A stretch of 64,000 bases of DNA from Dictyostelium discoideum (Eukaryota). Where the stretch lies: the NCBI GenBank assembly GCA_000004695.1, contig CM000151.3, positions 8,096,001 to 8,160,000 of the forward strand, given 5' to 3'. Shown here piece after piece: positions 2,993 through 45,831 of the stretch; positions within the stretch are counted from its first letter, which is position 1; each line of letters starts with the position of its first letter. The position numbers and the translations under genes were made by a program. A model generated the notes under the pieces. That model made no database searches, was not told the DNA's origin, and worked only from the letters and a program-made list of their open reading frames with translations.

Positions 2993-5621
2993 GACAAAAA
3001 AAAAAAAAAAAAAAGATATATTGAAATACCATTTTTAGCAGTATCTTCAAAGATTGATTTATCATTAATAGGAAAATCATTAGAATCATTATCTTTTTTT
3101 CATCCAAATAATTTTACATTTGGCGGCTTATTTCCAATAATTTTACCATCCAATGAAGCATTTAAAAAATTGGAATTTGTTAATGGAAATATTGAAACAT
3201 TTGATTTTTCATTATTTACAAATGTTGAAACATTATCATTAGAAAGTAATTTAATGTCAAATGATTTTCCTTCAAGTTTCAATAGAACAATTCATAGAAA
3301 ATTAAAACACCTTGATATAAGTAATAATAAAATGACAGGTACAATTGATGATTCATTTTGTCAATTAGAAATCATTGTTACAAATAATTCAATGACAGGT
3401 TTAATTCCAACTTGTTTTACATGTTTCTTTGGATTACCAGAAATAAATTTAGAAAGATATTTTATTGGAAATAATTTTATAAATTTAAATACACCTTCTT
3501 CACCATGTAAGTGTTTTATTTTTTATTTTTTATTTTTTATTTTTTATTTTTTATTTTTTTTTTTTAATTTGTTTTTTTTTACTAATTCCATTTATGATAT
3601 ATATATATATTTGTATTTAAGCAATTATCATTCCAAATATAGTTTTTAATAATACTTCAATTATTGAGGGTATTCCAATAGTTTTTTATGAATATTTAAT
3701 ATTTGGTGAAAATTTAGGTGGTAGTTGGGTTCCATTTACAGCTGTCTCTGATTCTGTAGGAACACCAATGATTTTTTCAATGATTGAGTCAAATAGTTTA
3801 TTTAAAGTATTTTGCTATGGAGAGCCCAAGTTTCCTTTAAACTTATCATACAGTAAGTCTAACCCAAACTATACATTTACTTTATCATTGGGAATACCAC
3901 CAATATTAAATTTAGTAGATTGGCAATCAAGTACAACTGATTTAGTAATAGATGGTTCATTCTTTACATATAATGGTTCTATAATTAATATTACAATTGG
4001 TAATGAAAATTGTTTCGTTACAAATACAAATTTTTATCAAATTAAATGTAAACTTTCAAATGTTATAGATCAATCATTAGAGGATATTATATCATATATT
4101 ACAATTGGTAATTTTAAAACTCAATTCACTTTAAATCCAGGTGTAATAAATACAATTTTAAATTGTACTGAAAATTATAATGATTGTAATGGTAATGGTA
4201 ATTGTTTATCTGATATTGGTAAATGTAAATGTGATTCAACTCATCAAGGTGATGATTGCTCAATCCCATATATAGAATGTTTAAATGATTGTAATAATGT
4301 TGGTCAATGTAATAATCAAACTGGTATTTGTTCATGCCCAATCACTCCTTACGAATGGATTGGTATTGATTGTTCAATTCCATTACATACAATATCAGCA
4401 GTTTCACCAAGTGATACCAATGGTGGTAGTGCTTCGATTTATGGTTGGTTTAGTAATAATCATACTGATCCACAAGTTTTCATTGGTAATAAACAATGTA
4501 TACCAATTTTTAGTATATCTGAAAGTGAAATTATTTGTAAAGCACCACCAGGTACAGGTTTAAAATCAGTAAGTGTAATTCAAAATTCAATCAATGTAAC
4601 ATCAAAAGATATTTATCAATATTATTCAAATGATAAACAATGTCCAAATCATTGTACATCGACATCAAATGGTATTTGTAATACAACAACTGGATATTGT
4701 AATTGTATCGGGAGATGGAGCGGTTATGATTGTAGTTTATATTCAAATCCAAGTGGTGGCGATAATAATAGTGGAATACCAGGATCAAATACAACAATAG
4801 ATGGTAATACTGGTAATACAAACATTACAAATCAACAAACAAATTATCAAATTTTAATTACAAAATTAATAGAGATAGATTTCAATGGTAATCAAATCAA
4901 TGAATATCTTTTATTAAATAAATGGTCAATAATTTCAAATATTAGTAAAACAGTTTACACATTCATTCAATCAATTCAAAATGATATATGTAATATTACA
5001 TATACAATTGAAGAAGTTAATAAAGATAGAGATGTATCATTTGCAGGTATTAATTTTAAATTAACAAGTGGATCAGTTAAAATGACAGTATCAATTGAAA
5101 ATTATCAATATTCAAGTAATTTAAATACATTACAATTACAAATGAAATCAAGTGTAAATGAAATTCAAACAAATAATGAAATGAATGATTGTAACGATGA
5201 TCAAATTGAAATTGATAGTACACCGAACCAAGATAATTCATTAAATTATATAACAATTAAAAAAGATGCAAAAGTTTTAAATGGTAGATTTATAGACAGA
5301 ATCGAAAGTGATGGTATATCAACATTTATGCAAACTGTGTTAGTATCAAAATCAAATGATTCAATTACAGTTGGTATGAATTTACCTCATTGTACAAAGA
5401 AATGTTTATTAGATCCTGACTTCTCTGTATTGATTAGTCCTGAATTCATTGATGAATGTGATGATAATAATCGTGAGTCATGGTTTTTACCAGTTGTGAT
5501 CGCTGTTCCAGTTGGAGGTCTAGCTGCAATTATTGCTATTGTTTTCATAATTTACAAAAAAAGATTTGTTGAAGCCCCATTAAAAAGAAAATTAAAATCA
5601 CTTAGAAATTATAAAAATTAA
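2024..5621 (+). pseudogene. Paralog A of an LRR / EGF-like / IPT-TIG single-pass membrane protein family; apparently disrupted; exons approx 2024..2565, ~2659/2693..2942, 3016..3506, 3622..5621
   Basis: Same four-exon architecture as the intact paralog C at 10401..13993, with near-identical nucleotide sequence in exons 1-4. TCA->TAA in exon 1 (2414..2416; C has aattCatatcc, A has aattAatatcc). A 1-nt insertion just after the predicted exon-2 acceptor creates an in-frame TAG (2656..2658). Exons 3-4 are fully open: signal peptide, LRR-like NxL repeats, CxCDSTHQGDDCS EGF-like, ISAVSPSDTNGGSASIYGWF IPT/TIG, TM LPVVIAVPVGGLAAIIAIVFIIY. Confidence 0.5.
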
Positions 5622-7195: not shown

Positions 7196-9854
7196 ATATT
7201 AAATTAAACATTTAATTTTTTTTATTACTTAGAAATTTTGAAGTTCCGTTTAAATCTGTTAAAAAAATGTGCGATTTATCATCAATAGGTAAATCAATTC
7301 AAATTATTTCCTTTTCAAAATGTGGTAGAGATTTTTCATTTAATGGTTTAATGCCAATAATTTTACCAAATAACCAAGATTTTCAATATTTTTTTTTAAT
7401 TGGTGGCTATATTAAGAATTTTGATATTTTGCAATATAAAAGTGCTGAATATATTACATTAAGCAATAATTTGATGTCTGGTACCTTACCTTCAATTAAT
7501 AGTTTTAAATTCGGTAAATTAAAATATATTGATATTGGTTTTAATTTAATAACAGGTGAATTGGATGACTCATATTGTGAATTTGATATTATTGTAAACA
7601 ATAACTCAATGACTGGATTAATTCCAACCTGTTTTACATGTTTCTTTGGACTAACTGAATTAAATTTAAAATCGAGATTCATTGGTAATAATTTTACAAA
7701 TTTAGATCAACCTTCATCTCCATGTAAGTTGAAGTAGTATTTTTTAACTTTTTTTTAAAATTAAAAAGATTGAATAAATTTGAAAAAAAATTACTGACTA
7801 TATTTTATTTATAATAATAAAGCAATTATTTCACCAAATTTGATTTTCTCAAATATTGAAATATTTCAAGGTCAACCTCATTATAAATATTATATCTTTG
7901 GTGAAAATTTAGGTGGGGCTTGGATTGATGAATCAAATGCAGAGATTATTGGCTTTGATGTGAAATTTAGGGTAATAAAACCAAATAAACTAATATCACT
8001 TTACTCTCTTTCATCATTTTCTAGTATTGTAACATTTTCATATAGTAGAATAAATTCAAATTATAGATTTACTTTATCAGCAGATTTAATAACACCAAAA
8101 TTAATAAAGGTTGAATGGGTTAGTAATTCTCAAGATTTAGCTTTTGAAGGTTTTTATTTTTCCTATAATAAATCAATAATTAACATTTCAATTGGTGATG
8201 TTAATTGTCAAGTTACAAGTAGTACTTTTTATAATATTAACTGTACTCTTTTGGCACCAATAGATCTTACTTTAATTGATATTGTATCATTTATAACAGT
8301 TGGTAATTTAACAACTCAGTTCACTTTAAATCCAGGTGTTACAAATAATTTACTATATTGTATTAATGGATGTGGTGGAAATGGAATTTGTTTTTCCGAT
8401 ATTGGTAAATGTAAATGTGATTCGACTCATCAAGGTGATGATTGTTCATTACCATATATTGAATGTCCAATTAATTGTACCAATTTAAGTGTATGTAATA
8501 ATGTAACTGGTGAATGTTCATGTCCATCATTCTTAATTTGGAGCGGTATTGATTGCTCATTTCCATTACATACAATATCTGCAGTTTCACCAAGTGATAT
8601 CAATGGTGGTAGTGCTTCAATTTATGGTTGGTTTGGTAATATTCATAATGACCCACAAGTTTTCATTGGTACTAAACAATGTATACCAATTTATAATATA
8701 TCTGAAAGTGAAATTATTTGTAAAGCACCACCAGGTACAGGTTTAAAATCAGTAAGTGTAATTCAAAATTCAATCAATGTGACATCAAAAGATATTTATC
8801 AATATTATTCAAATGATAAACAATGTCCAAATCATTGTACATCGACATCAAATGGCATTTGTAATACAACAACTGGATATTGTAATTGTATTGGAAGATG
8901 GAGCGGTTATGATTGTAGTTTATATTCTAATCCAAGTGGCGGTGGCGATAATAGTGGTGGATTACCAGGATCTAATACAACAATAGATGGTAATACTGGT
9001 AATACAAATATTACACTGGTAATACAAATATTACAAATCAACACACAAATTATCAAATTTTAATTACAAAATTAATAGAGATAGATTTCAATGGTAATCA
9101 AATCAATGAATATCTATTATTAAATAAATGGTCAATAATTTCGAATATTAGTAAAACAGTTTACACATTCAATCAATCAATTCAAAATGATAAATGTAAT
9201 ATCACATATACAATTGAAGAAGTTAATAAAGATAGAGATGTATCATTTGCGGGTATTAATTTTAAATTAACAAGTGGATCAGTTAAAATGACAGTATCAA
9301 TTGAAAATTATCAATATTCAAGTAATTTAAATACATTACAATTACAAATGAAATCAAGTGTAAATGAAATTCAAATAAATCATGAAATGAATGATTGTAA
9401 CAATGATCAAATTGAAATCAATAATACACCAAATCAATATAATTCATTAAATTATATAACAATTAAAAAAGATGCAAAAGTTTTAAATGGTAGATTTATA
9501 GACAGAATCGAAAGTGATGGTATATCAACATTTATGCAAACTGTATTAGTATCAAAATCAAATGACTCAATTACAGTTGGTATGAATTTACCTCATTGTA
9601 CAAAGAAATGTTTATTAGATCCTGATTTCTCTGTATTGGTTAGTCCTGAATTCGTTGATGAATGTGATAATGATCGAAAATCCTTTTTTTTACCAGTTGT
9701 TATAGTGGTTCCTATTGTTTTTTTAATTTTAATAATTATTTTTGTAGTTATTACTATAAAAAAAAGATATGTTGAGATGTATTTATTTAAATCAAAAATA
9801 AAACAATTGGCAAACTTAAAAAATATTAAAATAAATAAAAAAACAGAATTATAA
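6198..9854 (+). pseudogene. Paralog B of the LRR/EGF/IPT-TIG membrane protein family; frameshifted in exon 4; exons approx 6198..6706, 6854..7153, 7233..7723, 7823..9854
   Basis: Exon junctions are phase-consistent (TT|GTATGT...ag|T; AT|GTAAGT...ag|A; T|GTAAGT...ag|CA). A 20-bp tandem duplication (ACTGGTAATACAAATATTAC x2 at 8995..9034), absent from paralogs A and C, shifts the frame so translation terminates at 9061..9063. The downstream 9064..9854 (IPT/TIG, TM, tail) remains open only in the +2 frame. The N-terminal exons are much more diverged from A/C than A and C are from each other. Confidence 0.55.
8995..9034 (+). repeat. 20-bp x2 tandem duplication causing the frameshift in paralog B
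   Basis: ACTGGTAATACAAATATTAC occurs twice consecutively here, but once at the homologous positions in paralogs A (~4803) and C (~13177). Confidence 0.85.
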
Positions 9855-11380: not shown

Positions 11381-13993
11381 CAAAAAAAAAAAAAAAAGAT
11401 TTATTGAAATACCATTTTTAGCAGTATCTTCAAAAATTGATTTATCATTAATAGGAAAATCATTAGAATCATTATATTTTTTTCATCCAAATAATTTTAC
11501 ATTTGGTGGTTTATTTCCAATAATTTTACCATCAAATGAAGCATTTAAAAAATTGGAATTTGTTTATGGAAATATTGAAATATTAGATCTTTCATTATTT
11601 ACAAATGTTGAAACATTATCATTAAAATGTAATTTAATGTCCAATGGTTTTCCTTCAAGTTTCAATAGAACAATTCATAGAAAATTAAAACACATTGATA
11701 TAAGCAATAATAGTATTACAGGTACAATTGATGATTCATTTTGTCAATTGGAAATCATTGTTACAAATAATTCAATGACAGGTTTAATTCCAACTTGTTT
11801 TACATGTTTCTTTGGATTACCAGAAATAAATTTAGAAAGATATTTTATTGGAAATAATTTTATAAATTTAAATACACCTTCTTCACCATGTAAGTGTTTT
11901 ATTTTTTATTTTTTATTTTTTATTTTTTTATTTTAATTTGTTTTTTTTTACTAATTCCATTTATGATATATATATATATTTGTATTTAAGCAATTATCAT
12001 TCCAAATATAGTTTTTAATAATACTTCAATTATTGAGGGTTCAATAGTTTTTTATGAATATTTAATATTTGGTGAAAATTTAGGTGGTAGTTGGGTTCCA
12101 TTTACAGCTGTCTCTGATTCTGTAGGAACACCAATGATTATTTCAATGATTGAGCCAAATAGTTTATTTAAATTATTTTGCAATGGAGAGCCCAAGTTTC
12201 CTTTAAACTTATCATACAGTAAGTCTAACCCAAACTATACATTTACTTTATCATTGGGAATACCACCAATATTAAATTTAGTAGATTGGCAATCAAGTAC
12301 AACTGATTTAGTAATAGATGGTTCATTCTTTACATATAATAGTTCTATAATTAATATTACAATTGGTAATGAAAATTGTTTGGTTACAAATACAAATTTT
12401 TATCAAATTAAATGTACACTTTCAAATGTTATAGATCAATCATTAGAGGATATTATATCATATATTACAAATGGTAATTTAATAACTCAATTCACTTTAA
12501 ATCCAGGTGTAATAAATACAATTTTAAATTGTACTGAAAATTATAATGATTGTAATGGTAATGGATATTGTTTATCTGATATTGGTAAATGTAAATGTGA
12601 TCCAACCCATCAAGGTGGTGATTGCTCTTTGCCATATATAGAATGTTTAAATGATTGTAATAATGTTGGTCAATGTAATAATCAAACTGGTATTTGCTCG
12701 TGTCCAATCTCTCCTTATGAATGGAGTGGTATTGATTGTTCAATTCCATTACATACAATATCTGCAGTTTCACCAAGTGATACCAATGGTGGTAGCGCTT
12801 CAATTTATGGTTGGTTTAGTAATAATCATACTTATCTACAAGTTTTCATTGGTAATAAACAATGTATACCAATTTATAATATATCTAAAAGTGAAATTAT
12901 TTGTAAAGCACCACCAAGTACAGGTTTAAAATCAGTTAGTGTAATTCAAAATTCAATCAATGTAACATCAAAAGATATTTATCAATATTATTCAAATGAT
13001 AAACAATGTCCAAATCATTGTACATCGACATCAAATGGCATTTGTAATACAACAACTGGATATTGTAATTGTATTGGAAGATGGAGCGGTTATGATTGTA
13101 GTTTATATTCAAATCCAAGTGGTGGTGGCGATAATAGTGGTGGATTACCAGGATCAAATACAACAATAGATGGTAATACTGGTAATACAAATATTACAAA
13201 TCAACAAACAAATTATCAAATTTTAATTACAAAATTAATAGAGATAGATTTCAATGGTAATCAAATCAATGAATATCTATTATTAAATAAATGGTCAATA
13301 ATTTCAAATATTAGTAAAACAGTTTACACATTCATTCAATCAATTCAAAATGATAAATGTAATATCACATATACAATTGATGAAATTAATAAAGATAGAG
13401 ACACAACTTTCGCAGGTATTAATTTTAAATTAACAAGTGGATCAGTTAAAATGACAGTATCAATTGAAAACTATCAATATTCAAGTAATTTAAATACATT
13501 ACAATTACAAATGAAATCAAGTGTAAATGAAATTCAAACAAATAATGAAAATGATTGTAACAATGATCAAATTGAAATCAATAATACACCAAATCAAGAT
13601 AATTCATTAAATTATATGACAATTAAAAAAGATGCAAAAGTTTTAAATGGTAGATTTATAGACAGAATCGAAAGTGATGGTATATCAACATTTATGCAAA
13701 CTGTGTTAGTATCAAAATCAAATGATTCAATTACAGTTGGTATGAATTTACCTCATTGTACAAAGAAATGTTTATTAGATCCTGATTTCTCTGTATTGGT
13801 TAGTCCTGAATTCGTTGATGAATGTGGTGGTGATAATGATCGAAAATCCTGGTTTTTACCAGTTGTTATAGTGGTTCCTATTGTTTTTTTAACCTTAATA
13901 ATTATTTTTGTAGTTATTACTATAAAAAAAAGATTTGTTGAGATGTATTTATTTAAATCAAAAATAAAACAATTGGCAAACTTAAATAAATAA
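10401..13993 (+). CDS. Paralog C (intact) of the LRR / EGF-like / IPT-TIG type-I membrane protein family; exons 10401..10942, 11041..11331, 11399..11889, 11991..13993
   Basis: Signal peptide (MLNFIQKISKSGCNFFYLFLILILINFSNPKVNSQ). Cys-containing N-terminal domain. LRR-like repeats (LSLKCNLMSNGFPSSFNRTIHRKLKHIDISNNSITGTIDDSFCQLEIIVTNNSMTGLIPTCF). Two EGF-like modules (CNGNGYCLSDIGKCKCDPTHQGGDCSLPYIECLNDCNNVGQCNNQTGICSCP). IPT/TIG-like module (ISAVSPSDTNGGSASIYGWF...ICKAPPSTGLKSVSV). C-terminal TM (LPVVIVVPIVFLTLIIIFVVITI) and short basic tail. Donors ATG|GTAAGT, AT|GTATGT, T|GTAAGT with phase-consistent acceptors. Confidence 0.7.
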
Positions 13994-18748: not shown

Positions 18749-19443
18749 TTGATAAACAAAATGAAATTTTTTTTTTTTTTATTCATCAAAATTTCATTTC
18801 ACAAATCTCAAAACATGAAAGATATAAGTTTACCAAAATATTTACACATTGATATTTTAAAACCAATAATTGATTATTTATTAACAAATAATAATAAAAT
18901 AAATTATGATAATAATAATAATAATAACAATAAATACATAATTAAAAACTATTATTTATATATAAATGAAATAATTAAATTATCATTAGTATCAAATCAT
19001 TGGTATCAAATAATATCAAATTTAATAATATCAAATTTAATATCAAATAATATTTTAGAGGAATGGTTCGATTTATATAGTGATTATTTACCAGAGGAGG
19101 AGAATGTTAATAAAGGAATTAATTTTATAGCATATGATTTTAATAAAATTTATGATGTTTATTTAACTCAATCAAATTTTAAAATGAAAGTTAATCAACA
19201 ATATTCAATTATCAAAATTAATCAATCAGTTATTGAAGATTATTTCAGAAATCAAGTACTATGTATTTATGATTTAACATATGAAAAATTATTACAACTC
19301 AGTAAATTAGAAACAGAAGGTAATTTAAAGTATAGAAAGATTATATCAAAAAATCCCTACTCTAAAGATGGTTTTAAAAATTTATTTTTAGAGGGTGGAA
19401 TTGCAAAAGGTATTGAAAAGAATGGTTTACTTGATATATCATC

Positions 19444-19540
<97 letters not shown>

Positions 19541-20806
19541 AATAATAATAATAATATTGTAGAATTAAATGTTTATGATTTTCTATTGGAAAATAATGCA
19601 GAAGAAGGTTTTTATAATTTATTACCAAAGGAAGAAGATGAATATGACATTTATAAAGATCCCCAACCAATACTCTATTTAAACACTATTGATTATGAAG
19701 GATCTCAAGATGATTATAATGAAAAAACATTTAGAATTTTGAAATACTTAAAATCAAAAAATATAATATTTAGATCAAATTATAATGAGAATGTTCATGC
19801 AGATTTTTCATTAATGTTTAACAATAAAATCAACAATCAAGTCGAGTCAATTAGAATAGATTCAGATTTTGTAGAACCAATCGATTTGCAAAATGTATAT
19901 GAACTTACAAATTTACATACACTTTCAATTCCATTACATTTTCATCAAATGATTCTATTACAATTGGGTATTGGAAAATTACATTGTAGGGGTGGTGATT
20001 TACTTGAACATAAAGATAATGTAATGCAAGATTGGGATAAAATGATTCGATCATTATTAGCAAGTAAATCAATTAAAAATTTTAAAATTTCTAATAAATG
20101 TTATACATATGAATGTATTAATAAAAGCATCAACTCTTATAATAATGAAAATTACAGTGCGGCCAGTAGACATGTTAAAAAAATATTCTCAAATGGTATC
20201 AAACAACTTTTATCATCATCAACATTTAAATATTTTAAATTTTCAAATATGTACGATATCATTAGTATTGATACATTTTCAGAATTAAAAAATAATAAAA
20301 CTCTTAAAAAATTGGTATATAAAGAAAAGTTTCATTATGGTTATAGGCTCTTCTTTACTACATCTGAAGAGGTTGCAGAATATCAATTTAATATTATAAA
20401 TTATTTAATTGAAAATATTTTTTCAAATGGCACCAGTGGTGGCAGTATGCTTAGTAATAATATCAAACATTTTAAATTTTCATTAGAATTTCCATATAAA
20501 TTAAAATTAATATTTGAATCATTATTTAAGCATTATAATTATTTTCAACTATATTCTATTACTATTGTAATATATGACACACTTTATGAAGAACTTTTAA
20601 ATGAAATTATTAATTTATCAAATAAAATTTCAAAAGTTCAACAACAGCAACAACAACAACAACAATCAATTAAAGAATTTAAAATTGTTATTGAGAAAAA
20701 CTTTAGTGACAATAAACATTTTCAATCAATATTAAATGATAGAAATATTAATGGTGATAATGGTTTATTTGTAATTACAGTTTCAAATAAAAAAAGACTC
20801 TGCTAA
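18749..20806 (+). CDS. Hypothetical protein, paralog 1 of a tandem pair; F-box-like N-terminus; contains a long poly-Asn tract. The conserved start may be the ATG at 18815 (MKDISLPKY...)
   Basis: 685-aa ORF. The N-terminal [19 protein letters not shown]...[13 protein letters not shown] resembles an F-box (LPxEIL...L..VSKxW) with an Asn-rich insertion. About 80% identical at the protein level to the ORF at 21341..23332. (AAC)n encodes about 37 consecutive Asn. Confidence 0.65.
19445..19555 (+). repeat. (AAC)n then (AAT)n coding trinucleotide repeat (about 37 Asn) in paralog 1; only about 9 Asn at the homologous site of paralog 2
   Basis: caacaacaac... run of about 95 bp followed by aataataat. 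Confidence 0.9.
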
Positions 20807-21340: not shown

Positions 21341-23332
21341 TTGTCAAATGGTTTCATGAAAGACAAGACGAAATTTTTTTTTTTAATTTATCAAAATTTT
21401 ATTTCACAACCTCAAAACATGAAAGATATAAGTTTACCAAAATATTTACACATTGATATTTTAAAACCAATAATTGATTATTTATTAACAAATAATAATA
21501 AAATAAATTATGATAATAATAATAATAATAACAATAAATACATAATTAAAAACTATTATTTATATATAAATGAAATAATTAAATTATCATTAGTATCAAA
21601 TCATTGGTATCAAATAATATCAAATTTAATAATATCAAATTTAATATCAAATAATATTTTAGAGGAATGGTTCAATTTATTTGAAGAGGATTTACAGGAG
21701 GAGGAGGAGGAGGATTTTAATAAAAGAATTAATTTTATATTATATAGGTTTAATAAAATTTATGATGTTTGTTTAACTCATTCATATTTTAAAATGAAAG
21801 TTAATCAAAAATATTCAATTATCAAAATTAATCAATCAATTATTAAAGATTATTTTAGAAATCAAGTACTATGTATTTATGATTTAACATATGAAAAATT
21901 ATTACAACTCAGTAAATTAGAAACAGAAGGTAATTTAAAGTATAGAAAGATTATATCAAAAATTTTCTACACTAAAGATGTTTTTAAAAATTTATTTTTA
22001 GAAGGTGGAATTGCAAAAGGTATTGAAAAGAATGGTTTACTTGATATATCATCAAATAAAAACAACAACAACAACAATAATAATAATATTGTAGAATTAA
22101 TTGTTTATGATTTTCTATTGGAAAATGATGCTGAAGAAGGTTTTTATAATTTATTACCAAAGGAAGATGATGAATATGGTATTTATAAAGATCTCCAACC
22201 AATACTCTATTTAAACACTATTGATTATGAAGGATCTCAAGATGATTATAATGAAAAAACATTTAGAATTTTGGAATACTTAAAATCAAAAAATATAAAA
22301 TTTAGAACAACTAGTGTTAAAAATGTTCATGCAGATTTTTCATTAATGTTTAACAATAAAATCAACAATCAAGTCGAGTCAATTAGAATAGATTCAGATT
22401 TTGTAGAACCAATCGATTTGCAAAATGTATATGAACTTACAAATTTACATACACTTTCAATTCCATTACATTTTCATCAAATGATTCTATTACAATTGGG
22501 TATTGAGGAATTACATTGTAGGGGTGGTGATTTACTTGAACATACAGATAATGTAATGCAAGATTGGGATAAAATGATTCAATCATTATTGGCAAGTAAA
22601 TCAATTAAAAATTTTAAAATTTTTAATAAATGTTATTTAGGTGAATGTATCAATCAAAGCATCAAATCTTATAATAATGAAAATTACAGTGCAGCCAGTA
22701 GACAAGTTAAAAAATTATTTTCAGATGGTATCAAACAACTTTTATCATCATCAACATTTAAATATTTTAAAATTTATAATATGCACGATATCATTAGTAT
22801 TGATACATTTTCAGAATTAAAAAATAATAAAACTCTTAAAAAATTGGTATATAAAGAAAGGTTTCTATATAATTATTGCCTACGTAATAAAGAAGAGGTT
22901 GCAGAACATCAATTTAATATTATAAATTATTTAATTGAAAATGTTTTTTCAAATGGTGCTAGTGGTAGTGGTATGCTTAGTAATAATATCAAACATTTTA
23001 AATTTTCATTGGAATTTCCAAATAAATTAAAATTAATATTTGAATCATTATTTAAGCATTATAATTATTTTCAACTATATTCTATTACTATTGTAATATA
23101 TGAAACACTTTATGAAGAACTTTTAAATGAAATTATTAATCTATCAAATAAAATTTCAAAAGTTCAACAACAGCAGCAACAACAACAACAACAATCAATT
23201 AAAGAATTTAAAATTGTTATCAATAAAAAAATTAACAATAAACATTTTCAAACAATATTAAATGATAGAAATATTAATGGTGATAATGGTTTATTTGTAA
23301 TTACAGTTTCAAATAAAAAAAGACTCTGCTAA
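21341..23332 (+). CDS. Hypothetical protein, paralog 2 of the tandem pair (F-box-like N-terminus). The conserved start may be the ATG at 21419
   Basis: 663-aa ORF collinear with 18749..20806. Shares [30 protein letters not shown], the C-terminal poly-Gln and ...[14 protein letters not shown]. Acidic insert [10 protein letters not shown] in place of paralog 1's PEEENVNK. Confidence 0.65.
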   Translation: [663 protein letters not shown]

Positions 23333-40498: not shown

Positions 40499-40957
40499 AT
40501 GACAAGTAAATATTGTTGCCAACATGATGAATTTTCTTTAAGAAAGCTTAAAAAAAGTGAAGATTTCACTCTTTACCTTGATGAATTACTAGATCAAGAT
40601 GAGTTTCTAAAGATTCAGCCTGGTTACTGCACAGAGGAATGTAAACAAAAAATGAAGGAGATTTATAGAATTACATTCGAACGTTATATTGAGACTATAA
40701 ACAAATATTACAGTGACAGCAGAATTTTTGAATATAACTTGGGAAAAAATCCTCGAGGATGTGATATTTGGATGTATCGAGAATTTTTCAGTACTCCACC
40801 CCCTATCTCTCCCCAAGATGAATATGCTAGAATGGTCATAAAAGCAATGAAAGTTGGTATTAAAGATGGAAAGCCTGTTAGATTATGTGAATTGCCACCT
40901 GGTGTACAATGTGATTTTGATGCAAAAAACCTACCTGATTCTGAAGAAGATGAATAG
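40499..40957 (+). CDS. Hypothetical 152-aa protein with atypical codon usage (Cys-pair rich: CCQHDE...CTEEC...C..PPGVQC)
   Basis: Intact ATG..TAG ORF. Codons such as CAG CCT GGT TAC TGC ACA GAG and CGA GGA TGT are unusual for this genome. No family recognised by eye. Confidence 0.45.
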   Translation: MTSKYCCQHDEFSLRKLKKSEDFTLYLDELLDQDEFLKIQPGYCTEECKQKMKEIYRITFERYIETINKYYSDSRIFEYNLGKNPRGCDIWMYREFFSTPPPISPQDEYARMVIKAMKVGIKDGKPVRLCELPPGVQCDFDAKNLPDSEEDE

Positions 40958-41880: not shown

Positions 41881-43056
41881 TTGTTTTTTTTTTTTTTATA
41901 AAAATGAGAAAACTATTGGTACTTTATTATAATTAAAATAAAATAAATATTAATAAATGTAAAACTTTATAAAATAAATATTATTATAATAAAAGTAATA
42001 ATAAGGATAGATTGATTTGATTTCTTGAAATTAATAACGAAATTAATAACGAAATTAATAACGAAATTAATTTGATTTCTAAAAAATGTTTATTTTTTTT
42101 TCTATTTTTAGTGTAAAAAAGGGGGAAATAATTTAATTCATCAGTGAGCTGTCATTTTTAGTTTTGAACGTTTTGCATCATCAGATTCCAATGTTTGACT
42201 ATAAATATTTTCTTTACTTTTAATCTCTTGTTTAATTATTCTCTATCACGTTTTGGTTTCATTAGACCCTTGTTATATTCCAATGCCGATGATTCATTAA
42301 TACGGTCAAACTCTTTTTGAAAAGGTGTAGGTGGTACTTTCTTTAATTTTTCGGTGAACAAAACCGATGATGATTTATCACCAGTTATAGTTTTTGAAAG
42401 TTTTTTCCTATCGATTGGCATCTCCAATGTTGAACCTTTTTTTTATAATTTTCTTTTAAATCCATTCAAATTCATTTTTTTAAAAAAAATTATTCAATCA
42501 TTTTTTTAAAAAAAAAAAAATTTAAACATTAATTAAAATTATATTTTAGAAATAAAAAAGAAAAAAATGGAGCTTTTAATTCCATTAAGTTTATTGGGAT
42601 TATATTTATTTTCAGGGACAAGAGATTCAGTTCATAAGGGAGAAGTTAAAGATGACTTGAAAGAGAAACCTATAAAAGTTAATTTTAATTTAACTGACTC
42701 TACAAAAGTTGACCATAAAACTCATCTCAAACAGTACAGTTCATTAAAACCAGGTGACACATTGGAAATATTATAACAAAAACATTTAGATCACTCTACG
42801 AAAGATTTAAAACACCCAGTATCCATTATCAATGATAAGTCTGACAGTAAAATTCATCTTAAACGAACATACCGGAAAAGTTAAAGTTAAATTTATTGAT
42901 CATACAATTCGTAGTGATGTTAGACCAATCTCATTTGGAATTAATAAAAAATAATTTATTTTCTAAAAAAAAAAAAAAAATTCTCTTTATTATTTATTAT
43001 TTATTTTTAAAATTAGTTTTGTTTTTTTAAAAAAAAAAAAAAAAGAAAGAAAAAAA

Positions 43057-44300
43057 ATGGGTATCAGTGATCAAATCAATAGTAATTTATCAAGTCAATC
43101 TCCATTTACTGTAAGTACAAACCCAAGTGATTCAATGTTTCTTCCAACAAACAGAATTGCAAAAACAGCAGATTGGAAAGAGGAGAAAAAATATTACTAT
43201 CCAAAAGAATCGATTCAAAGTATTTATGAAGGTACAACAGTTCGTATCGTAATCGATAAACAAAATGGTAGACTTTATGGTTTGGAAATGGTAGTTGAAA
43301 TTGGACCATTGACTGCAAATGGTGCTACATTTACACGTCTCTGTAGGGATGTTGCTCATTCGATGGCCTATAGTGTTTCAATATGGAATGGTAATAATGA
43401 AATTCATAGACTTCATATGGATCATGAAAGAATTGAGATGGTTTTAACTAAATTAAAACATGAAAGGGACATGGAAGATAAGATGGCCGGTTACTATGAT
43501 GATGCGACACGTACTGCATTGGGTGCAACAAAACAAAAATTAATTTTTGATTTGAATTTCTTTCATACTGTCCACACTTCTGATGCACTCTATTTAAATG
43601 CCTGGCATTGAAATACACTTATCAAATTAAGATCAATCCTTTAAGAAGATGGGTAGAAACCGATGGTACTGATCCAAAAGCTAATGATTTCAAAGTTTAT
43701 CTTCGTGCTGATATTATTCATACACCACAGGATGAATATCGTATAGTTCATAATACTATCAACACTGGTACTGGTATTTTTTCACCAATTGAACATACAG
43801 AGATGAAAGAGCGTGTAGTACTCAACGTTGGTGAATCAAAACATTATGTTCAATTAACAAACATTATTGGTAATGGTCGTTCTTATTTTGTTGTTTTAAG
43901 AAGATTGGCAGACACTGAAAATCCAAAAGCACCAAGATATGATGATTTCATGCCATGGGAAAATATGCGTTTATTACATGCCGGTAATAAGGAAGTTCAT
44001 TTACCACATAATAATATGATGGATTGTTTTAAACATTTAAAGCATCGTTTTCATTTTGATGCATCCTACAATGATGATAAATCTCCAAACAGTATGAATA
44101 TTTATGGCTTCAGTTTTTCAGCTAATCCTATCGATGTCAAAAATCGAACAGGTTGTTTTTCATTCTCACAAGCAAACAATCTTCAATTGGAAGTAACAAC
44201 AAAAACTCTAACTGAACCATGGGTACTCGATTTTTATACAGCATCCACTCAAATCATTCAACAATCTGGTAACACAGCAAAAACAATTCTCCATTATTAA
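43057..44300 (+). pseudogene. NCLDV-type (double jelly-roll) major capsid protein homologue, split by a frameshift at about 43600..43611 (ORFs 43057..43611 and 43608..44300)
   Basis: ORF1 QNGRLYGLEMVVEIGPL..VSIWNGNNEIHRLHMDH..KLIFDLNFFHTVHTSDALYLNAWH* resembles PBCV-1/FV3 MCP R(N/S)GD(L/Y)I..(V/L)V..L / IGGQRIDKHYNDW / PLIFFF..GLALPLIALQYHEVK. ORF2 continues the motif (EIK)YTYQIKIN after a frame change. C-terminal IYGFSFSANPIDVKNRTGCFSFSQANNLQLEV resembles HLYAYAFSL..PSGSCNFSRIDNA.L.L of NCLDV capsids. Combined length about 414 aa. Confidence 0.7.
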
Positions 44301-44440
44301 AAAAAAAAATAAAAAAGTATAAAAATAAAATTTTTTTTTTTTTTTATTTAAAATTGATAAAGAATTTTTTTATTAAAAATTAAGTCTATCGTTTCGTCGT
44401 TATCTTCTTTATCTTCGTTATCGTTGTCGATGGCATTGGT

Positions 44441-45443
44441 CTATAGATTATCTACTGATTTTTTAAAGATTTTTTTCTTTAGTTTTTTCATTTCTTTCTT
44501 TTTAGTTTTTTCCTCCTGAATTAACCACCACCCAGGGCATACTGAATCAGTGGGTAATGAACCCCTCTTTATATCAAAACGAGGCAAATCTTTAAATTGA
44601 TGGTATAGATTCGTATACTCATAAGGAGTGTATCTAAAGATTTCAAATTCTTTAAAAGAACTACCGATAGTAGACTTGTGTTTGGATGATAAAAACAAAT
44701 TTTTAAATTCAAACCATTATCACCTGGCGATAAAACTTCATGAAGTAATAATGTTTCTTTAAATTCCCATAGAAATATGTGATGATTCCTATCATTTTCA
44801 TTACAAACTCTACAATTCATTAGCTCCCGTTTCCTTAGAAGATCGATTAAAACCTTCCAATGTTCATCAATTTTCTCAAGTTTATGATTAAGAAAAAAAG
44901 ATTCCAGAGCAATTTTTATATGATGTAGCCGATTATCAAATCTATAAAGATGTTCTCAAACTTAATACAGTAAAAATTGGAAAGGATTTGGATGGAAAAC
45001 AATGTTTTATTCATGAGTTTGGTTCTTATGGTGACCGTATGGTTGGAGCATTGGTTGGTAGTGATCTCTTGGGTGGTTATAGTACTTTCTTTGGAATAAT
45101 TGTTTCGGTTTTCATAAAGAATAAGGACATTTCATTAAAATAATTCCTTCCATTGGTTAAAATCGATAGAGATTATACTGTTCCTGAAATGTTTGTTCTT
45201 TACAAAGAACTTAGATCAACTGGTCAATTTGCAAAATCACCAAATCTTTACAAATTTTATTGTTCATTACTTTGGCTCTTGGTAAATATTCATGAACAAC
45301 TTAGTGACGATGGTAAAAATGGTTTCGAATCTCAAGCGATCAACTTACCTCTTTGCAATTATATATTGGTGAATCTAAACACAGCGATTCCTTCGAAATT
45401 CTTTATTTTTTTTTTTTTTTTAATAACATCGCTCAATTTATAA
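44441..45443. other. Decayed GC-richer ORF fragments on both strands between the MCP relic and the tRNA (44441..44820 minus, 44905..45140 plus, 45153..45443 plus)
   Basis: Overlapping frameshifted minus-strand ORFs (CRVCNENDRNHHIFLWEF... / ...YTPYEYTNLYHQFKDLPRFDIKRGSLPTDSVCPGWWLIQEE). Plus-strand fragment ...GKQCFIHEFGSYGDRMVGALVGSDLLGG, reminiscent of a minimal nucleotidyltransferase hG[GS]..G....SD motif but with the second Asp missing. Followed by KIDRDYTVPEMFVLYKELRSTGQFAKSPNLYKFYCSLLWLLVNIHEQL. Confidence 0.3.
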
Positions 45444-45486
45444 AATTCTTTATTATGTTTGGTTAAAATTGAAAAAAATTATCAAA

Positions 45487-45559
45487 GGGGATGTAGCTCA
45501 GATGGTAGAGCGCTCGCTTAGCATGCGAGAGGTAAAGGGATCGATACCCTTCTTCTCCA
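45487..45559 (+). tRNA. tRNA-Ala (anticodon AGC), 73 nt, with a non-canonical T-loop
   Basis: GGGGATG acceptor with G3:U70. A box TAGCTCAGATGG. Anticodon arm CTCGC-TTAGCAT-GCGAG. T-arm AAGGG-ATCGATA-CCCTT (A54; B box GGGATCGATACC deviates from GGTTCGANTCC). 3' acceptor CTTCTCC (T6.T67 mismatch) plus discriminator A. T6 terminator follows immediately at 45560..45565. Confidence 0.8.
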
Positions 45560-45587
45560 TTTTTTGGGCCGACGATATGAGATCGCA

Positions 45588-45598
45588 GGTTCGATTCC
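45588..45598 (+). promoter_or_regulatory. Extragenic B box (ex-B) downstream of the tRNA gene
   Basis: Perfect GGTTCGATTCC about 29 bp downstream of the tRNA 3' end. Dictyostelium tRNA genes frequently carry such an external B box, which is also used for TRE3 targeting. Confidence 0.55.
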
Positions 45599-45831
45599 TA
45601 ATTTTATTATCAACAAATTTGAAATGTTTATAAATTTAACTTTACTCGAAAAGAGTTCAATTCAAACTTTAATAATATATGATTTGTAATAATAGTATAT
45701 TTAAATTATCTACTAAAAATTTCAATTTTTATTCATTAAAGACTATTTTAGTACCAATTAATAATATTACTTTTATTAGTTCATTAGATCAAGCATTTTA
45801 TAAATTTCAAAAATAAATAAAAAATAATAAT

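Follow-up and report, generated by a model that had tools for sequence, protein, structure and literature searches.

The window analysed here, a 64-kb stretch of chromosome 2 of Dictyostelium discoideum AX4 with a GC content of 22%, contains a virus-derived fragment of 3.3 kb (42130-45397) that lies among host genes coding for a phospholipase B, a DEAD helicase, a WD40 protein, and a lipase, and next to a eukaryote-type tRNA-Ala(AGC) gene. The same synteny is found in L008, a second and independent D. discoideum assembly, which is 99.7% identical to the window over 22.8 kb, almost all of the differences being indels (58 gap positions and 5 mismatches). The five genes of the fragment (Table 1) belong to a block with the order ~770-aa gene (-), 129-aa gene (+), 414-aa capsid gene (+), VLTF3-like gene (-), and ~365-aa gene (+).

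Table 1. Features of the virus-derived fragment and of the frame break in its capsid gene. Positions refer to the window.
Feature	Position	Strand	Remarks
~770-aa gene remnant	42130..42475	-	First ~115 codons; homology to L001/L002/L006/L007/L003 begins abruptly at 42130
129-aa pseudogene	42567..42954	+	Four-way DNA alignment; upstream neighbour of the capsid gene in all intact copies
ORF A	43057-43611	+	184 aa; identical with DDB_G0277465 and P0049; capsid residues 1-182, then out-of-frame W and H, then TGA
GT..AG stretch	43570-43631	+	62 nt; intron in the annotation of GCA_054883475.1; judged an annotation artefact
T_TTA_AAT heptamer	43593-43599	+	In the frame of ORF A; shape of a -1 slippery site; judged coincidental
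1-nt deletion	43602/43603	+	Thr183 codon; alignment of deleted versus intact copies
ORF B	43608-44300	+	230 aa; -1 frame, opens at TTG 43608; capsid residues 184-414
VLTF3-like remnant	44348..44883	-	Residues ~293-470, C-terminal; tblastn, alignment, translations
364/366-aa gene remnant	44874..45397	+	Internal residues ~85-259; blastn, tblastn; cut again at ~45381-45397

The capsid gene is represented by two long abutting ORFs in DNA of 22-33% GC and, to judge from their sequences, such a pair is not a chance event. ORF A ends with ...SDALYLNAWH and the stop codon TGA at 43609-43611, and ORF B follows in the -1 frame from its TTG, which bears out the two-ORF layout described in an earlier note on this DNA. 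Together the two ORFs make up a gene of 414 codons with one frame break, and each of them is 95-97% identical to one intact 414-aa protein. An uninterrupted full-length capsid frame is absent from the window gene, which is split into ORFs of 184 and 230 aa. Read in the frame of the intact homolog, the remainder of the gene is open, as had been stated before, with no further stop or indel across 1.24 kb.

The frame break was located in an alignment of ten copies, of which five are frameshifted (the window, L008, and the Logan contigs L009-L011) and five retain the full codon for Thr183 (L001, L002, L006, L007, and L003); the two groups differ by one base within that codon. Intact copies read GCC ACA/ACG GCA TTG, whereas the window reads GCC -TG GCA TTG, and therefore one base of Thr183 was deleted. 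The ancestral codon ACG (ACA is also found among the live copies) has become TG, and the sequence across the lesion is GCCTGGCA where the deletion is present and would be GCCACNGCA in an uninterrupted counterpart. The earlier note had placed the lesion at the TGA/TTG overlap. The actual site is 6 nt upstream, after GCC at 43602/43603, so that ORF A has left the original frame by the time it reaches 'WH'; for the ancestral peptide, which had been proposed as ALYLNAWHE?KYTYQIKIN, the alignment instead gives ALYLNATALEYTYQIKIN. The site is not a homopolymer, in agreement with its previous description as homopolymer-poor. Among the intact copies, a single ORF of 414 codons is present in each of L001, L002, L006, and L007, and P0045 (414 aa) and P0005 (410 aa) represent full-length proteins. 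Exact-sequence searches of the contig collection with ORF A, ORF B, and DDB_G0277467 returned no matches, and the independent copies came via P0044 and P0046. L001 and L002 were also considered as orthologs of the window locus, which is ruled out by the abrupt ends of homology at 42130 and 45381 and by their different flanks. The intact copies are paralogs located elsewhere, and the comparison therefore shows the gene as it was before the lesion and not a strain polymorphism at this locus.

That the gene encoded a capsid protein, as had been proposed from the window alone, is supported by the fold of an intact copy and by matches of the family profile. The intact paralog P0001 (95% identity with the repaired window gene) was modelled with AlphaFold2 at a pLDDT of 87.1 and a pTM of 0.84. 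In Foldseek comparisons this model matched the capsid proteins of EhV-201, PBCV-1, and SGIV with E values of 1e-24 to 1e-21 and TM scores of 0.71-0.76, and NCLDV capsid proteins in BFVD matched it at E 1e-25 and weaker. Among PDB sequences, the family profile matched the EhV-201 capsid protein at E 1.2e-27 and NCLDV capsids at E 1e-27 to 1e-12. Pfam Capsid_N scored 19.9 bits with ORF A and 23.6 bits with P0001 against a cut-off of 24, which was passed by P0014 (35.6) and P0020 (30.5). On the evidence of the modelled fold, the intact protein is a Nucleocytoviricota-type double jelly-roll capsid protein, and ORF B corresponds to the last strand of jelly roll 1 plus the whole of jelly roll 2. With the MCPs of the Nucleocytoviricota (PBCV-1 Vp54/MCPv1-5, EhV-201, SGIV; PF16903, PF04451) it shares the predicted double jelly roll and a 'PLVALSYHQMKLNF'-type motif, which is found here at the lesion site. 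Unlike them, it shows an identity of only 10-16%, its 414 aa are at the small end of the range, and the window copy is frameshifted and resides in a host chromosome rather than in a virus. The earlier claim that the break falls within the most conserved capsid motif holds in part. The lesion does lie in the NCLDV motif, and in the alignment the window segment DALYLNA[T]ALKYTYQIKI is matched by GLYMPLVALSYHQMKLNF of PBCV-1 MCPv1 and by the corresponding segment of EhV-201. However, although this motif is recognisable, the least-varying part of the protein lies elsewhere, the near-invariant columns in the small-capsid family being R152, G240, P358, and G366.

The decay extends over the whole fragment, and each of its five genes has been disabled by truncation, nonsense codons, or frameshifts. 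The ~770-aa gene, which is intact in L001 at 4008-5423(-), has acquired a nonsense codon at ~42449-42451, a 1-nt deletion at 42238/9, and an 8-nt deletion at 42152/3. In the 129-aa pseudogene AAA was changed to TAA at 42774-42776 and 2 nt were deleted after 42859; the intact product is encoded at 5514-5903 of L001, and tblastn finds the window copy split over two frames. In the VLTF3-like remnant 1 nt is missing at ~44677, and a nonsense codon interrupts the frame at 44441-44443. In addition, a deletion of ~1.5 kb (junction at 44879) removed its first ~292 codons and fused it to the remnant of the 364/366-aa gene, which in intact copies is arranged head-to-head with the VLTF3-like gene. The Logan contigs L009-L011 are colinear with the window there and therefore also lack the ~1.5 kb. 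The intact 470-aa VLTF3-like paralog scores 25.0 bits with Pfam Pox_VLTF3 (PF04947; cut-off 25, E 1.7e-5), and the match is confined to the last 70 profile positions. All three family members matched this profile at E <= 0.01, and the AlphaFold2 model of the protein (3 sequences) has a pLDDT of 38.5. As only residues ~293-470 are kept in the window, almost none of the Pox_VLTF3-matched region is left. For the ~770-aa, 129-aa, and ~365-aa block genes and the small neighbouring genes, no Pfam family was found. We regard 42130-45397 as very probably a truncated, dead, and partial copy of a multicopy virus-derived block among host genes, and the capsid gene as a pseudogene. The fragment may go back to a larger virus-derived element, of which a part was duplicated or inserted and then decayed.

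The frameshift is, as far as the aligned copies tell, a real one-base deletion that killed the capsid gene and an ordinary pseudogene lesion. With one base of Thr183 lost, translation from the ATG would end two codons on at the TGA, and the other 231 codons, now in the -1 frame, would have no way of being read. The expected product, ORF A, would lack jelly roll 2 entirely as well as the final strand of jelly roll 1 and be non-functional, and probably no functional protein is made from this locus. The selection regimes of broken and intact copies differ. Intact copies have a dN/dS of 0.043-0.045 relative to D. dimigraforme (at a dS of 0.29), whereas the window and L009 differ with a dN/dS of 0.89 (7 nonsynonymous and 2 synonymous changes) and the dead lineage has 13N:7S versus 1N:6S in the live lineage (Fisher p = 0.033), an estimate of neutrality that is based on small counts (9 and 27 changes). 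The disabled copies are under relaxed selection, and the intact ones are under strong purifying selection between species. The suggestion of a 'very recent inactivation' is correct insofar as the gene is inactivated and the event is recent relative to the age of the gene. However, the inactivation is not private to the laboratory strain, because copies that are 1.2% diverged from the window also have the lesion.

Several other readings of the locus were weighed against that of a pseudogene. ORF A retains its ATG and an AT-rich upstream region and is annotated as a gene in AX4, and the 184-aa DDB_G0277465 might thus be a functional host protein that has been retained, for example as a dominant-negative capsid fragment, and in that event it would be wrong to call the locus simply dead. 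This is very unlikely in view of the nonsynonymous changes that have occurred within ORF A too (D57Y and Q117H on the shared stem, R94L and T171S in L009), the decay of all of its neighbouring genes, and the fact that the 184 residues stop short of the last strand of jelly roll 1.

Alternatively, the lesion might be bypassed by splicing out a short intron (the GT..AG stretch in Table 1), resulting in a capsid-like protein of 393 aa that is shortened by 21 residues. The borders of this stretch are in place, its removal restores the frame, and the deposited model P0044 (GCA_054883475.1) has precisely this junction, with ...FFHT joined to INPLRRW.... However, the GC content of the putative intron (35.5%) is near that of coding sequence (33%) and unlike that of the flanking non-coding DNA (2-18%), and in the intact copies the stretch is translated coding sequence, where the 'donor' reads ATC and not GTC. 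Splice donors of Dictyostelium have the consensus GTAAGT. The putative donor, GTCCAC, is far from this motif, and none of the 23 GT..AG pairs that would restore the frame has a consensus-like donor. Furthermore, removal of the intron would delete the strand 187-193 of jelly roll 1, and the P0044 model continues into the remnants of the next gene and over the tRNA gene, as is typical of a forced prediction. A spliced product is hardly credible against this evidence.

The earlier note had also named ribosomal frameshifting as an option. Ribosomes would slip on U_UUA_AAU, read ...LYLN-CLALKYTYQ..., and produce a full-length capsid protein of 414 aa; the junction sequence expected of such a product is LYLNCLALKYTYQ. 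Programmed -1 frameshift sites consist of an X_XXY_YYZ heptamer and a downstream structure, the coronavirus U_UUA_AAC being an example. Like these sites, the window gene has an in-frame heptamer of the canonical shape just before the 0-frame stop and an open -1 frame beyond. The heptamer lies within the 27-nt overlap between the -1-frame stop at 43581-43583 and the 0-frame stop, and the predicted slip product would keep the capsid motif at its proper length and in register. Unlike known sites, however, this one lacks a stimulatory structure, conservation of the layout, and selection on the downstream frame. The 88 nt that follow (43603-43690) have a folding energy of -11.2 kcal/mol compared with a shuffle mean of -11.55 for pseudoknot-free folds (z = 0.13). 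The intact paralogs need no frameshifting, and the heptamer is unchanged in all of the intact single-ORF copies, where it encodes Y-L-N (identical in all ten sequences). The two-ORF layout thus arose secondarily, as a lesion, and is not a conserved design, and a two-frame architecture was not conserved among the homologs in which it was sought (L001, L002, L006, L007, P0045, and P0005). The frameshifted copies diverge neutrally from one another and have gained another deletion, of 6 nt, in L009; no purifying selection on the -1 frame after the shift was detected between the window and L009, a comparison of low power (7N:2S). Moreover, the four neighbouring genes in the fragment are all destroyed. 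TTTAAAT has 198 copies in the AT-rich window, fewer than in shuffles. A point against the pseudogene reading is that the heptamer, perfectly in frame, lies 3 nt upstream of the lesion, which that reading has to take as a coincidence of roughly 1-in-100 order. On balance, programmed frameshifting is exceedingly improbable.

An error in the reference sequence or its assembly, with the true gene being intact, would match the absence of one base from an otherwise open ORF of 1.24 kb, but this option, also raised previously, is practically negligible, because L008 and the window show 100% identity throughout the gene and share the gap, the Logan contigs from four sequencing runs (SRR28564543 and SRR26869266-8) are 98.8% identical and differ from the window at other positions yet share the same 1-nt deletion, and the change (ACG/ACA -> TG) combines a deletion with a substitution and lies outside any homopolymer. 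L008 may stem from the same laboratory lineage as AX4; it would then still argue against an assembly error but be silent on natural populations. The Logan read assemblies would cover this point, and the deletion is present both in the independent D. discoideum assembly and in the four-run contigs.

With the capsid gene read as a pseudogene, the two 'hypothetical proteins' DDB_G0277465 and DDB_G0277467 of AX4 would be the halves of one dead NCLDV-type capsid gene, and a Nucleocytoviricota-like virus would have left a fossil in the D. discoideum genome. The exons of DDB_G0277467 match the window with 100% identity. This AX4 model is chimeric and combines the C-terminal half of the capsid with remnants of the next gene and with sequence past the tRNA gene, and in the newer assembly the lesion is concealed behind an invented intron. 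No mention of DDB_G0277465 or DDB_G0277467 was found in the full-text literature, and our literature search retrieved no published description of a D. discoideum capsid relic.

Relatives of the fragment are found in wild Dictyostelium assemblies, in which the capsid-containing block is present in several copies, intact and identical (the strains with intact copies are represented by GCA_054859385.1 and GCA_054859205.1). A second, divergent element (L005/L013/L014) has counterparts of four of the five block genes in the same local order, plus dNK and YqaJ. This second, divergent set of capsid, VLTF3-like, ~770-aa, and ~365-aa genes, with dNK and YqaJ, is carried by a 58-kb contig of D. cf. discoideum (JBTAPH010000006.1) and by a read-assembled contig. 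Counterparts of two block genes occur on an environmental virus-like contig, and related environmental contigs of tens of kb carry a DUF5906 helicase and YqaJ. To our knowledge, no virus of D. discoideum or of other dictyostelids is known. The AX4 fragment could be a fossil left by viruses whose lineage has remained active in dictyostelids to this day or until very recently, a possibility that we put forward tentatively and consider rather doubtful. Counted in its favour were the identical intact copies, their dN/dS of 0.04, the independent decay of integrated copies, and the second divergent gene set. The alternative to an active virus lineage is that the multicopy capsid gene has been domesticated by the host. 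The intact, selected, and multicopy versions in close relatives are the place to seek either a Dictyostelium virus or a domesticated capsid.

Among known systems, the block resembles the Mriyaviruses (PMC11253617) and related PLV-sized groups (bioRxiv 10.64898/2026.06.19.733378), which are small relatives of giant viruses, in combining a small NCLDV-like capsid with a VLTF3-like gene. No gene for a packaging ATPase, an HUH endonuclease, or VLTF2, and none specific to Mriyaviruses, turned up in the block sequence examined. A previous study, which lists seven MCP copies in Acanthamoeba castellanii Neff, also scanned the annotated proteins of D. discoideum; it reported virus-related transfer to a limited extent only, and a capsid gene was not named (PMC5203793). 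Like the relics of the A. castellanii Neff type, the D. discoideum fragment has an MCP and a VLTF3-like gene among host genes, is multicopy, and has been eroded by truncation, nonsense, and frameshift lesions. Unlike these relics, it is split over two 'hypothetical protein' models and amounts to a fragment of only 3.3 kb.

The interrupted gene encodes a capsid protein, as the earlier note had proposed. With the two ORFs fused as query (ORF A and ORF B, see table), other Dictyostelium assemblies yielded intact 414-aa proteins of 95% identity (P0001, P0043, P0045), and an exhaustive HMMER scan retrieved 40 relatives, mostly of 400-430 aa, from dictyostelids (such as P0005 of D. cf. discoideum and P0006 of Acytostelium) and from metagenomic or read-assembled contigs. 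Matches to Pfam Capsid_N were weak, and part of them exceeded the threshold. A confident AlphaFold2 model of P0001, with the family alignment as input (pLDDT 87.1, pTM 0.84), matched in Foldseek the solved capsid proteins of EhV-201, PBCV-1, SGIV, faustovirus, and ASFV (E 2e-24 and weaker, TM ~0.75) as well as predicted NCLDV capsid proteins, and the family profile matched PDB capsid sequences with E 1.2e-27. In the profile alignment, the window segment DALYLNA[T]ALKYTYQIKI pairs with GLYMPLVALSYHQMKLNF of PBCV-1 MCPv1; the break thus does lie in a conserved capsid motif. A 390-aa protein of D. cf. discoideum (P0004, ACTFIY_000802), encoded on the same contig as the intact copies L001 and L002, is identical to the capsid protein over residues 1-52, the remainder being unrelated and Lys/Glu-rich. 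It may represent a gene with a captured capsid 5' end or a mis-model.

The two abutting ORFs with a change of frame, as described before, match the sequence; the frames overlap by 27 nt, the -1 frame being open from its stop at 43581-43583. Intact copies in D. cf. discoideum (L001, L002) and in D. discoideum GCA_054859385.1 (L006, L007) read TTA AAT GCC ACA GCA TTG GAA TAC where the window, in the DNA alignment, reads TTA AAT GCC -TG GCA TTG AAA TAC, and the Thr codon is ACG in D. dimigraforme (L003). With -TG facing ACA or ACG, the frame break is a one-nucleotide deletion plus a transition in the codon for Thr183, at 43602/43603. The break itself is thereby upheld and its site moves 6 nt upstream, while the restored peptide suggested earlier, ALYLNAWHE?KYTYQIKIN, gives way to ALYLNATALEYTYQIKIN, the ancestral peptide according to the intact copies. 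In the frame of the intact copies, no further indel or stop occurs in the window gene, so that the rest of it is indeed open.

Features at and around the frame break (window positions)
Feature	Position	Strand	Description
ORF A	43057-43611	+	ATG-initiated, 184 aa, ends ...SDALYLNAWH-TGA
ORF B	43608-44300	+	-1 frame, 230 aa, starts MKYTYQIKINPLRR...
T_TTA_AAT heptamer	43593-43599	+	in-frame, inside the 27-nt overlap; textbook -1 slippery-site shape
62-nt GT..AG stretch	43570-43631	+	annotated as "intron" in GCA_054883475.1
DDB_G0277467 model	43800-45816		capsid C-terminus, ~365-aa gene remnants, and exon past tRNA-Ala gene
~770-aa gene		-	first ~115 codons left; nonsense codon, 1-nt and 8-nt deletions
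129-aa gene		+	AAA to TAA at 42774-42776; 2-nt deletion after 42859
Capsid gene		+	1-nt deletion at 43602/3
VLTF3-like gene		-	residues ~293-470 left; 1-nt deletion and nonsense codon
~365-aa gene		+	residues ~85-259 left
tRNA-Ala(AGC)	45487-45559		~90-105 bp past right end of viral fragment
tRNA-like 3' fragment	~45575-45600		directly after tRNA-Ala(AGC); ...GCAGGTTCGATTCC...
152-aa ORF	40499-40957	+	intact, upstream of fragment
ComC-like tandem genes	3768-5621, 7840-9063, 12134-13993		EGF/TIG/ComC supersandwich domains
Pair of large ORFs	18749-20806, 21341-23332		second paralogous pair; no Pfam match

Inactivation, one of three options in the earlier note, is borne out by a lesion common to independent assemblies, by damage to all genes of the fragment, and by relaxed selection in the dead lineage. 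Homology between the intact copies and the window has a sharp left edge at 42130 and extends to ~45381-45397, with an internal deletion of ~1.5 kb at 44879 in the window. The intact copies are located elsewhere, in segmentally repeated blocks of at least 10 kb adjoining retrotransposons. They are paralogs, whereas the window contains a truncated partial copy in which each of the five genes is damaged. In an independent D. discoideum assembly (GCA_054883475.1), the locus L008 is syntenic with the window, with 99.7% identity over 22.8 kb and 100% across the capsid gene, gap included. Contigs from four sequencing runs (L009-L012; SRR28564543, SRR26869266-8) are 98.8% identical to the window and differ from it at other sites, including an additional 6-nt deletion; they contain the same one-base deletion and 4-nt ORF overlap and are colinear with the window over the downstream ~1.5-kb deletion.

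Between the intact copies and D. dimigraforme dN/dS is 0.043-0.045 (dS 0.29), so the capsid gene has evolved under strong constraint. Between the frameshifted copies of the window and L009 there are 7 nonsynonymous and 2 synonymous substitutions (dN/dS 0.89), and outgroup-polarised changes amount to 13N:7S in the dead versus 1N:6S in the live lineage (Fisher p = 0.033). Though small, these counts agree with what the lesions indicate. The copies in D. dimigraforme each have lesions of their own, a 129-bp deletion and a stop in L003 (6001-7116) and an altered C-terminus in P0047, with dN/dS against the intact copies still 0.04. This pattern fits decay of copies after insertion while the lineage remains under selection.

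Programmed -1 ribosomal frameshifting, the second option, deserved serious consideration because a slippery-shaped heptamer lies within the overlap. It is contradicted by the identical heptamer in all intact single-ORF copies, where it merely represents the Y-L-N codons; moreover, TTTAAAT occurs 198 times in the window, below shuffles, and the 88 nt 3' of the heptamer are predicted to fold no more stably than shuffled sequences (z = 0.13). Splicing is implied by P0044, the GCA_054883475.1 model, which crosses the lesion via the 62-nt "intron" and joins ...FFHT to INPLRRW.... Splicing is rejected as well: the stretch has a coding-like GC content (35.5% versus 2-18% in flanking non-coding DNA) and GTCCAC as donor, is translated in the intact copies, and includes strand 187-193 of jelly roll 1 in the P0001 model, which would be lost. 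A sequencing or assembly indel is excluded, as the deletion recurs in L008 and L009-L012. In a protein search, ORF A corresponds to DDB_G0277465 of D. discoideum AX4, and the first exon of DDB_G0277467 is the later part of ORF B, starting at an internal Met. DDB_G0277467 is a chimeric model with tRNA-Ala inside its "intron", and both this model and P0044 are artefacts.

In the intact copies, the 470-aa neighbour of the capsid scores 25.0 bits against Pfam Pox_VLTF3, which is just the threshold; both its relatives match as well. VLTF3 homologs are reported not to have been detected outside Nucleocytoviricota (PMC11253617). Of the five block genes, four recur in divergent form and in the same local arrangement on the 58-kb D. 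cf. discoideum contig JBTAPH010000006.1 (L005 1-21233, L013 1-19429) and on a 12.6-kb Logan contig (L014, ERR13950607). Identities are 31% for the capsid (P0005), 44-50% for the ~770-aa homolog, and 43% for the VLTF3-like proteins (P0052/P0051); the ~365-aa homolog is head-to-head with the VLTF3-like gene. Genes for a deoxynucleoside kinase (dNK) and the exonuclease YqaJ are also present, and the divergent set resembles a virus-like element of dictyostelids. On an environmental contig (L004, WUUC01053531.1; 18 kb at NCBI, 37 kb as a JGI contig with the same gene set), the gene of capsid P0020 (23% identity) is near a gene whose product is homologous to the N-terminal portion of the ~770-aa protein, which may thus belong to a virion or morphogenesis module. 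A 1047-aa DUF5906 helicase is encoded near P0020, and YqaJ on the 37-kb version. No packaging ATPase was found in the block and related contig sequence examined.

The window has a GC content of ~22%, poly-A/T intergenic tracts, and Asn/Gln-rich ORFs, which together with the tRNA-Ala(AGC) indicate Dictyostelium, and host genes of ordinary kinds (phospholipase B, DEAD-box helicase, WD40, lipase, acyl-CoA oxidase) flank the fragment. In Dictyostelium, tRNA genes are known landing sites of retrotransposons; several intact blocks adjoin retrotransposons (L002, L007). The 152-aa ORF is distantly related (30% identity) to a Cys-containing protein family of 110-180 aa with the motif G-C-[ST]-[EG]-E-C-K (e.g., L001 491-871 and 1060-1449), whose members abound near intact blocks as well as on the 58-kb contig. 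The ComC-like genes and the large-ORF pair are host gene-family expansions not related to the viral fragment.

The locus is a pseudogenised capsid gene inside a decayed endogenous viral fragment, and the frameshift itself is unremarkable. Of greater interest is what lies outside the window: in wild Dictyostelium assemblies the block is present in multiple intact copies under selection, and the 58-kb contig carries a divergent set of its genes. Our literature search found no paper mentioning DDB_G0277465, DDB_G0277467, or a D. discoideum capsid relic. Annotated D. discoideum proteins have been scanned before and no capsid gene was named (PMC5203793), an oversight that the split, mis-modelled gene would explain. 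Erosion of giant-virus genes in the chromosomes of protists is a well-known phenomenon, with the capsid gene copies of Acanthamoeba as one example (PMC5203793), and the locus adds another.
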